From Dictyostelium discoideum (Eukaryota), in the NCBI GenBank assembly GCA_000004695.1, contig CM000153.2:1248001-1312000 (forward strand): a stretch of 64,000 nucleotides of DNA, given 5' to 3'. The position numbers and the translations under genes are program-made. Within the stretch, counting starts at the first letter, position 1. Every line of letters starts with the position of its first letter. Of this stretch, positions 50,443-58,170 are shown in pieces. A model generated the notes under the pieces. It was not told the origin of the DNA and did no database searches. It saw only the letters and a program-made list of their open reading frames with translations.

Positions 50443-53400
50443 ATGGATAATTTGAAAGAAATATTATTTTGGAAAGTGTTTCATAATAAACCATTAAGGA
50501 ATTTGATTTTCTATCATATTCAAATAACAGAATGGGTAGAATATACAGATCCAATACAAATTAAACCAAATAATAGATTGAAATTTAAAGAAATAACTTC
50601 ATTAAAATTTTTATTAATGAATAAACTATACAAATTATTAAAATGTAAATTAGAACATGATGAATATATTGAAATTGGGGTAAAATCAGTTTCATTATTA
50701 TTTGAAAAAATTGAAAATTCAACAACAACAGAATCAATAACAGAATCAAAAACAACAACAACAGTAATAGAAGAAGAATAATAATAATAAAAATAAAAAA
50801 GATGAAAAGTTAAATTCAAATCTTAAGAAATTGCCAATTAAAATATTTAATTCATTTAAAAGTTTAAAAACAAAAAAAGAATTATTAAATTTAAAAATAC
50901 TTTCTTCATCTGGAATATCAGAGAAAGAATCTTTTAATCAATATTATAGTAAAGAGTTTAGTATTGATATTGAATATGAAGAGTTATTATTACAAATCTA
51001 TTATAAATATTATAAATATAATGAAGCAAAGGATAATATTGATTATAGTATTAATAAAATTGTAAATAGTGATAGTAACACCGATAAATTAAGAGAACTT
51101 CAAAAGTTGGTTATTATATCAACATTACTCAGTCCATTATATCAAGATTATTTTTTAAAGTATAGCGAGATTTAGAAGATTTTCACACTTTAAAACATGG
51201 AGTTGCGTCACCAATTGGCATTGATGCTAGTTCAAAGTTTATTACTCTTTACAAATACTTTTCAATATATGAAGGTAATGAAATTCTATTAGAAGAGATT
51301 AAAAATTTAATAAGTTCTAAAAATGTCAAATATTTCCCATTGATAGATTATATTGAATCAGATAGTGGCCACCAGGTGATATTTTGGTTTTTAAAGATAC
51401 ATTAATAATTGATTGGATAATAGAGTATAATTCACATATAAAGAATTTTTTAGCTCTATTCTCAGAATCATAGATTTCAATCAATCCAAGTACTAGAGTA
51501 TTTTGTTAGCTATAAATCAAAGGATAATCTTTATGGATTTACTTTAGAAAACTCAAGTTTATTTACATTTATCAATGCAATTTCTCAATGCAATATAGAG
51601 GAGTTACAATTTATTGATAGTTTAAATAGTAAATTATGTGGTGTTCCAAATGATCATAAATTCTTATCAACAAATTGTTCATTTCAACAACACCATGATT
51701 TACTAGTATACTTAAATTTAACTGGTTTCCATAGTTTTTCAAAACTAAATTTTACAAAGATTTGTAAAGAGTTTTTAGAAATTAATCAACTAGAATTTAA
51801 AAAAGTAAATTTAGAAGGGTTTTCTATTTTTGAAATAAATGAAATTTTTACTATTGCCTTGAAAAACTTGGATTTCAAATTTTTACATTTGATGGTAAAT
51901 TGCATGGATCCAAATTATTTTTCTGTAGATTTTCCGTATGGTTTAGAATCTACACCAAGAATAATTTTTAATAAACAGGGTGAAATTTATCAAATAGTTG
52001 GTGATTGTATTACTTCAATAATAAAATTAATGGAAATGTTTATAAATAAATTTATTGAGATACTAAATAACAATAATAATAACAATGGTAATCAACAAAA
52101 AAAAAAGAAAAAACCCTTTCAAATTCACATTTGGTATAATTTTAAATTTATATTATCAATCTACCAGTCATTTGGATCATCATCATCACTAAATGATGCA
52201 CAAGAGTATTATGACTGTATTAGAGATGATGATGATGATCCAAATGACTGGTAGATTGATAATACTGTATTAGAGACTGTGATTCTACTACTCACGGATT
52301 TAATATATTAAATCTCATATATTTAGTCTTGATTTTATTATTGGTTGTGGTCAAGAAGGTATATTTAAAAATTCATTTTACAATATTATCAATACGTTAA
52401 TTCATTGGTTATCAAATGAAAAATTTAACGATTTATCAAGTACAACTTTTCTTGGTCATTTTACAGTTATAAACAATGCAGTTCTAGAATTTTGTTTGAA
52501 TATTAAAAGAGTTGATTTATTTTTTGAACAGTTGGATTATATACAAGGTTACATAGATTTGGCAAATAAAAGTTATGGCTATAGATTAGATAGATCATTT
52601 CCTCATTATTCATTCACATATAGCTCACCCTCAACAACATTATTACCTTCTAGTTCATTAGTAATTCCTCAACAGGTATTGGAAAGAGTTTCCCATTTTA
52701 GTGAAAACCAAACAGCATTTCCAAAAGTCATCAATTCATTTAAATATTCAAAACAGGTGATTAGATTAGCAGGTGAAGTTTTAGGGTTAGAGTCAACTCA
52801 AAGGTTTATAGAGTACAATTTTTTAATATCTAAATTTCAGAAAAAATTATATAAAAGTACTATGGATAGTTGTAGATTGGATATAGCTAGTTTTTTATTA
52901 GAAAATTATGATATTCAAGGATTAAATTTCTCTTTAGGTAAATATAGAAATAATTCCTATTGTATCTATAGAGAGGTGCAATATTTACTTGAAAATCATT
53001 TTGATAAGGTCAAACATCTACATCTCGTTGATTCTCATAAATCACTTTCCAAGTTTCAAGATTTCAAATATAAATGTTCTATCTTTTTTCATATTAAATC
53101 AGATTCAATCCAATTTACTACACAAACTATTTAATTCTAATTCAACACAATCATTAAATGATATACTTAAAACAACATTTCCTCAAATTAAAAAATTATT
53201 TTATCAAACTGGTGTAAATGGTTATGAAAAAAGTGAACAAGATTTTTTAGTTTTTATCAATTCAACAAAAATCAAAAAGCAAAGAGAATCAATTGAAAAA
53301 TTAGAGTTATTTTATAATAATAATATTAAAGAGATAACAAAGATCTTGGATTCATTATTCGATAAATCCTACAAACAAGAAATATTACCAATTTTAAAAA

Positions 53401-53543
53401 AAGAAGAAAATAGATACGTTGACAAAAAAAATAATCTATTTGCAAAACATTTTAGTAGAGGTGAAATTGTATTATGTGAACTCATTTTAAAACACTATCC
53501 AAATCAATTCAAGATCTCAAATTATTTAATCAAAGTGCATTAA
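50443..53543 (+). pseudogene. About 3.1-kb array of coding-like ORF segments in shifting frames (at least 6 frame changes or in-frame stops, no intron-like AT islands between them): probable decayed paralog of the adjacent 53821..58170 gene
   Basis: Segments: 50443..50781 MDNLKEILFWKVFHNKPLRNLIF..; 50831..51175; 51178..51420; about 51480..52254 (...FKFLHLMVNCMDPNYFSVDFPYGLESTPRIIFNKQGEIYQIVGDCITS...); 52496..53134; 52989..53543. Base composition is exon-like throughout. The N-terminal LFWKVFHNKPL resembles EKLFWKIFRNSKL in the neighbouring intact gene. The C-terminal ..LFAKHFSRGEIVLCELILKHYPNQFKI resembles its ..AARYGHIDIFKHLYFNHYKI. Confidence 0.45.
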
Positions 53544-56800: not shown

Positions 56801-58170
56801 TAATCATTAATATTGCCATTATTAAAATTTTTAAAAATTTCTGAAAATAATTTTGAATTCCTAAAAATTTTCCAAAATAATTTTTCACTATTATCAGTTG
56901 TATCATAACAATATTGATCATAATAACAATAATCATTTTGTAATAATAAAGTTTCCATTGGTTCTGTTGTTGATAGTAATAATGTTGGAATTAATGTTGG
57001 TGATGTTGATGGTGATGGTTGTAATTGGGGTGATACTAAAGTTAATGATTGTGCTTGTAAATTTGGTGATATTGATGGTGACCAGGATGTTGATGATGTT
57101 AATTGAGGTTTTAAATTTGGAGATGTTGGTGATGATGATGATGATGATGATGATGATGATGATGATGATGATAATGATGATAATGATGATGATAATGATG
57201 ATAATGATGGTGATGATGTTAAAGATTGAGGTTTTAAATTTGGTGATATTGAATCTGATGTTGATATTGATTTTAAATTTGGTGGTGCTGAAGTTGAAGA
57301 TGGTTGTTGTGAATTTAATTTTGAAGATGATAACGATGATGGTGGAGGTATTTGAAAAGATTCTTTTTGTTTAAAATTTTCAACTATTGTTTTAATTGAT
57401 TTAAATAATTCAGATTTATTTTTAGATTTAGTTGAAGTTAAACCAAATGATTTTGCAACTTTAACAATTTCATCTCTACCCTTTAATTCCAATTGATATA
57501 AATTTAAATTGATAGCTATTTGTTGTTGAGTTGGTGGTATAGTATGTTGATGTAAATAATGATCAGATTTTTGTTCCTGTTGTGGTGGTAATGGTTCCAA
57601 TTTCAATTTTTCATCAATTACCATTCTCGAGAGTCTTTTAGTTTTTTCAAGAAATTTTGGTAAATTCAATTTCGATGGTAGTGGTTTATATTTTAAAATT
57701 TCATCAATTTTTTCCATTGCTAATGAATCGATTTTCTTTAAATTTCTATCAGCTTTTTCGATACCATTCAATATAATCAATTGTTCATAGAGTTGATTTC
57801 TATCTATGAAATCTTTCCTATAGAGAATTGCCAATTTATTATATTGATTATCAATTTGTTGAGATAATGGTATTTCCTTTTTTAATTTTGCATCTGGTTG
57901 TTGAGGTTTTGGTAAAGGGATTGAACTAATTGGAAATTGTTTATCAAGTTCGGTTGGTTCTGGTTCAAATGAAATTTGCTTTTGAATTAATTCATTGGTA
58001 TATTGTTTTTGTAATATTATTTGCTCTTCAAATAATAATTGTTGCTGTTTTTGAATTAATCTTAAATAACTCTTCTTTGCTTCTTTACTTATCAATGACA
58101 TATAATATGACATTTGAGTTTTTGATAATGTTATTTTCTTTTTATTACAATCATCATGTCTTGGATCCAT
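53821..58170 (-). CDS. Large (1449 aa) protein of unknown function with S-rich and coiled/low-complexity N-terminal third, ankyrin-like C-terminal helices and a roughly 66-residue poly-Asn C-terminal tract
   Basis: Single uninterrupted track ORF. Internal motif ..SEKLFWKIFRNSKLFSEIF.. C-terminal ..IEAARYGHIDIFKHLYFNHYKILLEK...LVAIKHGHLHIMDFLM (ANK-like). The poly-N is encoded by a perfect (AAT)n. Confidence 0.7.
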   Translation of the reverse strand: MDPRHDDCNKKKITLSKTQMSYYMSLISKEAKKSYLRLIQKQQQLLFEEQIILQKQYTNELIQKQISFEPEPTELDKQFPISSIPLPKPQQPDAKLKKEIPLSQQIDNQYNKLAILYRKDFIDRNQLYEQLIILNGIEKADRNLKKIDSLAMEKIDEILKYKPLPSKLNLPKFLEKTKRLSRMVIDEKLKLEPLPPQQEQKSDHYLHQHTIPPTQQQIAINLNLYQLELKGRDEIVKVAKSFGLTSTKSKNKSELFKSIKTIVENFKQKESFQIPPPSSLSSSKLNSQQPSSTSAPPNLKSISTSDSISPNLKPQSLTSSPSLSSLSSSLSSLSSSSSSSSSSSSSSPTSPNLKPQLTSSTSWSPSISPNLQAQSLTLVSPQLQPSPSTSPTLIPTLLLSTTEPMETLLLQNDYCYYDQYCYDTTDNSEKLFWKIFRNSKLFSEIFKNFNNGNINDYGFGKQYFRYNEMNHIKWMLDNGHIKMLIDKTKKPNEFILVGGEYQYNQQTHYKNYFEKKTRIKMEIEKHFRWVSPIFKDIIKVINGTNQYCTTEFFQTLFTNYKRNIMSLEILGEYIIIEKNLHALHSICLSPFSYYNGRETLRLLIENSFLKGIKLLINRFKTEPTTLVYHTIILEKYTCKSIRKTFKIILYFVDQKLLTCNLQDVELRSSIYSRVVELIRMHQDFELTKRFGNEFYWVHIKLKDLLIMTRLVLLFEPNYSPDENDYSIVNNIQSLNQLISTHFTKQDLKLTLKKLLRDCPHYEKYQSIRELIIQYLKIVSGVERSIISNCFNYSLLDSFINYSSNEDDDDAEANEEIEIKKFVKLVDIIQPPNFIKKMKSYNLLEESLKFGYYHYWKELAIFKTPKNIFKNFNWKNSRLLFKYCRDDKKRQINFINKICECIDDSILYTNNKGAFKMYSHILLYLVIGTDDLELVRLVVKNLRNYVDFSLRPPQKSTPFESFYIQKYIRSTKMLDYCYQNFKIHFHLWLAAGEYYYFHRFKTLELFQRYEYLFSLFTDIKPLVQFKTLTIDDFNNTQKNYDGLVQSKIRLINLITYILSKPDIYKINSEILNCWTHESMEIDCDEDTFESILLPGIKSIIEFSFKETIINSRKLIQYNPSDIKIFKKNYQKIRLLDWIVDFRKSIDLTIIKNENKQEELNSCLKRCTFDFQFKESPLQIGANNDTISLEKLIQNILFKQQMKIEIDDLFMDVDFEYNNNNNEREVDSDITDDEYYEENNNIFNNDKNNKKEKKNIEYFNSEIQKIVIEAARYGHIDIFKHLYFNHYKILLEKPETGTGLISYGNLRKAMLVAIKHGHLHIMDFLMSIFDISFHNKDTRNYYYKYYKRLENPQKHQLTFLKKLKKEFDNQNKNNNNNNNNNNNNNNNNNNNNNNNNNNNNNNNNNNNNNNNNNNNNNNNNNNNNNNNNNNNNNNNNNNNNSNLIVKTEKLM
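53857..54057. repeat. Perfect (TTA)67 on the plus strand, equal to (AAT)n coding poly-Asn on the minus strand
   Basis: Uninterrupted attattatt... for about 200 bp. Both antisense ORFs in the track here are repeat artefacts. Confidence 0.95.

Follow-up and report, generated by a model that had tools for sequence, protein, structure and literature searches.

The DNA considered here (the window) is a stretch of 64,000 nucleotides from the genome of Dictyostelium discoideum AX4, and our subject is the region from 50443 to ~53630 on its forward strand, between a cathepsin-like gene and an intact gene of 1449 codons that faces it tail to tail. We put a probability of about 90% on this region being a unitary, non-processed pseudogene of a single-exon gene of ~1300 codons. 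What carries this reading is demonstrable homology to one intact gene, conserved synteny, a set of lesions that prove to be real, and the failure of an intron model to account for the breaks in the reading frame.

The intact ortholog in D. citrinum

The sister species D. citrinum has, at the corresponding position, an intact and intronless gene for a protein of 1327 residues (locus L002, 14322-18305, reverse strand). There, the ortholog of the 1449-codon neighbour (P0007) is followed by the 1327-residue gene, tail to tail on the opposite strand, and then by a Peptidase_C1 gene, an order identical to that of the window. The longer series of cathepsin, decayed gene, 1449-codon gene and NADAR is common to this D. 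citrinum locus and to a second, AX4-like assembly (L004). The ortholog was located via synteny, starting from the neighbour's orthologs P0006 and P0007. Word-indexed protein searches returned two to four matches each, dominated by low-complexity words, and missed the true D. citrinum ortholog; they yielded the AX4 protein model and a distant paralog, P0002, and via the latter a further paralog, P0005.

Searched against the window, the 1327-residue protein gives five collinear tblastn high-scoring segment pairs (HSPs) in frames 1, 2, 1, 2 and 3 (E = 1.5e-35 to 2e-101, 58-79% identity); at the DNA level the AX4 and D. citrinum genes are 78% identical. Even P0005, which is a distant paralog (29% identical) at a non-syntenic locus, remains collinear with the window from its N- to its C-terminus across the frame switches (three collinear HSPs; E = 1e-34, 7e-17 and 8e-13). 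The initial annotation had taken this region for a gene in decay and not for a spliced one, and on this point it is borne out: the syntenic ortholog is intact, intronless and collinear across all of the frame switches, and the supposed introns of the reference gene model encode ortholog-like peptide.

The forward strand has no long open reading frame (ORF) between 50443 and 53540, and the frame map resolves it into seven stop-free pieces in alternating frames. Piece A (50443-50778, frame 1) has the start codon and the N-terminal 'LFWKVF' module; it is 79% identical to residues 1-104 of the D. citrinum ortholog (tblastn, E = 1.5e-35) and scores 105 bits with a hidden Markov model (HMM) of that module. 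The frame then passes from 1 to 2 at the site of a 542-nt deletion (50777..50806, +), on whose flanks the DNA alignment places smaller in-frame deletions. Piece B (stop-free from 50771 to 51172, listed as 50780..51172; frame 2) is 66% identical to residues 333-451 (E = 4e-34) and ends with a 1-nt deletion at 51173. Piece C (stop-free 51166-51402, listed as 51166..51375; frame 1) has a 1-nt deletion at 51373. Piece D (stop-free 51366-51470, listed as 51375..51455; frame 0), which is treated as an intron in the reference model, has a 2-nt deletion at 51455 and agrees with the ortholog at 20 of 25 residues (DILVFKDTLIIDWIIEYNSHIKNFL versus D. citrinum DILIFKDTNIIDWIIEYSSYIRNFL). Piece E (stop-free 51454-52251, listed as 51457..52254; frame 1) closes with an in-frame TAG at 52252-52254 and forms with piece C a joint tblastn HSP to residues 432-748 (E = 1e-92). 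The degenerate stretch at 52060..52308 (+), the counterpart of residues 749-886, gives no tblastn HSP. Piece F (52304-53131, frame 2) is 69% identical to residues 887-1142 (E = 2e-101) and has an 8-nt deletion at 53068. Finally, piece G (stop-free 52938-53540, listed as 53013..53540; frame 0) is 58% identical to residues 1123-1296 (E = 4e-52) and carries a truncated C-terminal family module, recognized by the C-module HMM at 43.8 bits in an alignment restricted to positions 1-36. All seven pieces lie on the forward strand.

A three-way alignment with D. citrinum and another D. discoideum strain, ACTFIW, identifies 53541..53630 (+) as an out-of-frame remnant of the ancestral 3' end, with further indels of 10 nt and 1 nt. 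The extent first proposed for the region, 50443-53543, is thus right for the pieces and too short at its end, where the homology to the ortholog's 3' portion runs on out of frame to ~53630. The exon-like composition that had been claimed for the region is coding-like throughout, the AT content being 76.7% over the shattered stretch and 76.6% in the neighbouring coding sequence. The frame map also agrees with the claim of at least six frame breaks without an AT-rich spacer; no spacer comes near the 89% AT of the genuine intron described below. The window as a whole is very AT-rich and has poly-Asn tracts; a scan of it for transfer RNA genes found none.

Lesions in AX4 and the deletion in a second strain

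The lesions were called from the DNA alignment as changes in AX4 relative to the D. citrinum ortholog. The largest is the 542-nt deletion at 50777; residues 105-332 of the D. citrinum protein, a segment with a poly-Asn tract and a helical region that is conserved, have no matching AX4 HSP. (The tract, ~90 residues long, occupies residues ~236-325 of the ortholog and lies inside the segment that this deletion removed.) The frame is shifted by small deletions of 1 nt at 51173, 1 nt at 51373, 2 nt at 51455 and 8 nt at 53068. A cluster between 52093 and 52308 comprises deletions of 56, 53, 7, 38, 1 and 10 nt plus one 1-nt insertion, and with it the well-conserved family motif FYYLxIRSxKFTKY, present in both the family consensus and the D. 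citrinum protein, has gone from AX4. A TAG stands in frame at 52252, and a 1-nt deletion at 53533 leads to a premature stop that truncates the C-terminal module. The total of frameshifting indels is at least nine, and to judge from such a sequence the locus probably makes no functional product.

Over 15 kb, the window shows 99.9% identity to an independently deposited assembly at chromosome scale (GCA_054883475.1, locus L004). The five differences are four intergenic homopolymer lengths and one intergenic single-nucleotide polymorphism, and none of them lies within 50380-53700; the breaks are therefore not sequencing errors.

In ACTFIW (locus L003), a divergent strain whose copy of the 1449-codon neighbour is separated from that of AX4 by a synonymous divergence (dS) of 0.074, there are ~640 bp between the neighbour and the cathepsin gene. 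The counterpart of window ~50592-53562 (~3 kb) is missing, and in its place stand 47 nt from the C-terminal region of the gene in inverted orientation (L003 14585-14631, 94% identical to window 53436-53482), the trace of a complex event that combined deletion with rearrangement. The N-terminal stub that remains has lost its ATG and has 19-nt and 2-nt deletions of its own; in the short remnants covered by the three-way alignment no lesion common to AX4 and ACTFIW was found. Since the locus is deleted in ACTFIW, the gene is dispensable in D. discoideum. The locus hence illustrates gene loss among close relatives cleanly in three states, with an intact gene in D. citrinum, a shattered one in AX4 and a deletion in ACTFIW.

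The history that we envisage begins with a single-exon gene of ~1300 codons at the syntenic position, a state that D. citrinum still preserves. In the AX4 lineage this gene acquired an in-frame stop, two regions of larger deletion and a number of small deletions that shift the frame, so that the ancestral protein can no longer be made from the locus, and in the second, divergent strain almost the whole gene body is gone. Much of this is what a unitary pseudogene looks like: the ancestral syntenic position, an intact ortholog in a sister species, multiple frameshifts, a premature stop, internal deletions, and a present or deleted state that varies among D. discoideum lineages. It differs from such a pseudogene in that its ratio of nonsynonymous to synonymous substitution rates (dN/dS), ~0.4, is not yet neutral-looking, and in that the reference annotation is protein-coding.

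These ratios were obtained pairwise by the Nei-Gojobori method. For the AX4 remnant against D. citrinum, dN/dS is 0.37-0.42 at a dS of about 0.5, a pairwise value that covers both branches; for the 1449-codon neighbour it is 0.22. An intact pair of family members, P0002 and P0003 (D. discoideum versus D. cf. discoideum; L005 6001-9618 and L006 6001-9600), has a dN/dS of 0.52, and the RCC1-like gene convergent with them one of 0.19. The family is unusually fast-evolving even when intact.

Several points weigh against the pseudogene reading. The dN/dS of the remnant is not above that of the intact family pair and gives no independent sign of relaxed constraint; with the intact members of the family evolving as fast as they do, the ratio carries no information on that question. 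Piece A, the first 112 codons, is still an open ORF with a start codon, and a transcript or a truncated N-module protein may come from the locus. The comparison set is also narrow, consisting of a single outgroup locus and, besides AX4, a single divergent strain. The remnant's ratio is compatible with recent inactivation or with low statistical power, and it argues against a very old pseudogene; the loss of the gene was probably recent.

Competing explanations for the broken frame

Both NCBI annotations call a protein-coding gene here, and the breaks might be those of a genuine multi-exon gene whose short introns restore a single frame. The reference model, DDB_G0283997 (UniProt Q54QD8, P0001; 803 residues), has seven matching blocks in the window between 50617 and 53540, all at 100% identity, which marks the window as AX4 or a genome that cannot be told apart from it. 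The model has seven exons and six 'introns' of 160, 56, 78, 79, 54 and 94 nt, and split-codon junctions that fit GT..AG do exist. However, the D. citrinum ortholog is without introns, and those of the model do not behave as such. Our in-window standard for a genuine intron came from the cathepsin-like Peptidase_C1 gene directly upstream of the decayed gene (49288-50315, +), whose one intron of 92 nt (49608-49699; GTATGT...TTTTAG) is 89% AT, whereas AT makes up 73-85% of the model's 'introns' and 76.7% of the coding pieces. Read in one frame or another, all six give peptide that runs collinear with the D. citrinum protein, five as aligned segments of 64-82% identity and the sixth as a gapped match of 44 residues (one example is VIISTLLSPLYQDYFLK versus D. 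citrinum VITSTLLSSLYQDYFLR). Each of the six also scores above the best of 200 shuffles, narrowly (31 versus 28) in the case of intron 4 with its 8 residues, and the 'intron' 52802-52855 is simply 18 conserved in-frame codons.

Nor do the two available models agree. A second pipeline (the ACTFIT assembly), working on identical DNA, arrived at a different model of 917 residues. The AX4 model omits the conserved N-terminal 58 residues and with them the N-terminal module, the FYYLxIRS motif region is absent from both models, and the locus is deleted in another strain. The coding-like, ortholog-like 'introns' and the discordance of the models point to DDB_G0283997 being a gene-finder's patch, a way around the frameshifts, and we consider a spliced gene, in either the 803- or the 917-residue form, improbable. 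A literature search for DDB_G0283997 found nothing.

A shade more improbable still is the origin that the initial annotation had proposed, namely that the adjacent gene was duplicated locally in inverted orientation and that one of the two copies then decayed. The neighbour is an uninterrupted ORF of 1449 codons (53821-58170, -), convergent with the pseudogene as had been described, and belongs to a family of its own: its orthologs in ACTFIW (P0006) and D. citrinum (P0007) are 98% and 89% identical, and its D. discoideum paralog P0087 (ACTFIR_000616) is 30% identical. The two genes do lie tail to tail, and the N-terminal resemblance reported between them reaches significance when profiles are used. 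One such profile, which covers the N-terminal module and was made from the first ~100 residues of 53 family members with both window genes excluded, matches residues ~429-499 of the neighbour (56674..56886, -) with 35.7 bits (E = 8e-11 among 187 window ORFs), and hhalign, given an alignment of 14 family members and that of the neighbour, finds one match of 75 columns (96.9% probability, E = 1.3e-10). No other part of the neighbour is homologous to the pseudogene's family.

Elsewhere the segment-wise alignment of the two genes comes to nothing. Over more than 1100 columns hhalign found no similarity beyond the 75-column match, and the full-family HMM gave negative scores on the neighbour. A tblastn comparison of the decayed gene with the neighbour recovered just 18 residues of the N-terminal motif (E = 6), and blastp against P0002 the N-terminal motif only (E = 0.045). 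The supposed resemblance of the C-terminal helix pairs does not hold up, as the C-module profile is not significant on the neighbour, which is absent among the matches listed for the HMM that gives the pseudogene its 43.8 bits. Furthermore, both genes are intact and separate in D. citrinum, the N-module also occurs on ankyrin-repeat proteins of other dictyostelids, and the neighbour has its own paralog, P0087, with another architecture. The neighbour and P0087 have in common with the decayed gene's family a 75-residue module beginning 'EKLFWKIFRN...', but the neighbour has it at residue 429 and not at the N-terminus, the bodies of the proteins cannot be aligned, and the neighbour is intact and constrained (dN/dS 0.22). 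The convergent pair are separate genes of different families with one mobile N-terminal module in common, and they are not duplicates of each other on any recent timescale; each was already a gene in its own right when D. discoideum and D. citrinum diverged. Conceivably a very ancient duplication does lie behind them, one of which only the module can still be aligned.

The neighbour has some features of its own. It carries a SAP-like helix motif (LELKGRDEIVKVAKSFGLTSTKSKNKSELFKSIKTIV) at residues ~225-265, upstream of the LFWK module, and an ankyrin-like C-terminal helix pair at residues ~1264-1325. P0087 likewise carries the SAP-like motif, the N-module and the 'GRINIFQHLY' helix pair; both proteins have a long helical body, and neither has a Pfam hit. 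A 73-copy AAT/TAT trinucleotide array at window 53856-54074 encodes the poly-Asn tail of the 1449-residue protein; in ACTFIW the same tract (L003 14170-14250) is shorter and interrupted.

The two remaining explanations can be dealt with briefly. A run of small, independent, fast-evolving genes, the other possibility raised at the outset, is barely credible: several of the pieces do form ORFs of 110-280 codons, a start codon being possible in some, and public collections list two of them as predicted proteins in their own right (P0017, P0042), but together the pieces are collinear end to end with one 1327-residue ortholog, and with the whole family profile, and their boundaries lie at 1-2-nt indels and not in intergenic DNA. 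Equally hard to credit is an intact gene that only errors of sequencing or assembly make look broken, for although Dictyostelium DNA has many homopolymers and assembly errors there are known, the second assembly is identical over the whole region, several of the lesions are large (542, 56, 53 and 38 nt) and the flanking genes are intact.

The 'LFWKVF' family and its N-terminal module

The pseudogene belongs to an uncharacterised, dictyostelid-restricted family that has no Pfam domain. Its full-length members have 1000-1400 residues and an 'E-LFWKVF-N' N-terminus (for example P0002, ACTFIT_011961; P0005, ACTFIV_011185; and P0047, DICPUDRAFT_73968). Once repaired, the AX4 sequence is collinear with them from the N-module to the C-terminal 'G-D-I-x-x-C-x-L-I-L-K-x-Y-P-N-x-F-K-I' module; unlike them, it is out of frame, and two conserved regions in its interior are missing, as are the ~30 residues at its end. 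An exhaustive search with a five-sequence profile found 77 clusters at E <= 1e-3, 50 of them at E <= 1e-10. The clusters sampled came from D. discoideum strains, D. cf. discoideum, D. dimigraforme and D. purpureum, and the matches in other dictyostelids were remote and confined to the module. A Pfam scan of the pieces, the neighbour, the D. citrinum ortholog and the family members tested gave no meaningful domain and no Ank match; only two remote carriers of the N-module, P0084 and P0061, have Ank hits.

The N-module recurs on at least three architectures: the decayed gene's family, the neighbour's family and the ankyrin-repeat proteins, where it heads proteins of Synstelium and Tieghemostelium (P0084, P0061). 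Over its 75 residues it reads 'E-LFWKVF-RN...SLxWM...LLKxKL', it is not in Pfam, and the window has it at 50443-50700 (+) and at 56674-56886 (-). It looks like an undescribed N-terminal domain of dictyostelids. An AlphaFold2 model of P0003, made from a shallow alignment, is mostly helical, with a mean predicted local distance difference test score of 45 and a predicted template modelling score of 0.29, and Foldseek against the PDB gave weak alpha-solenoid matches only (best E = 7e-3, template modelling score <= 0.2). The model being unreliable, the predicted fold of the family may be described as mostly helical and no further.

Family members do not as a rule form convergent pairs like the one at this locus, the convergent partner of P0002 being an RCC1-like gene. 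Several other predictions (P0011, P0012, P0021, P0034 and P0038) are short or oddly duplicated and resemble fragments of the P0009 or P0005 type. This suggests that other family members too are decayed or mis-modelled in some assemblies. It is conceivable, if rather unlikely, that the locus is one case of rapid birth-and-death in a fast-evolving dictyostelid family, with its 112-codon ORF perhaps expressed as a truncated protein. The hints of such turnover are the dN/dS of ~0.5 between intact members, the many fragmentary members, and the presence or absence of the gene between D. discoideum lineages. This pattern is known from recognition or conflict genes in social amoebae.

To a specialist, the locus would be an ordinary unitary pseudogene and no surprise, and the main value of recognizing it is one of annotation hygiene. 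DDB_G0283997 (Q54QD8) and the 917-residue model are probably artefactual proteins, and flagging them as products of a pseudogene would spare orthology tables, proteomics databases and mutant screens. Beyond this, the locus directs attention to a dictyostelid-specific family and to a recurring N-terminal module.

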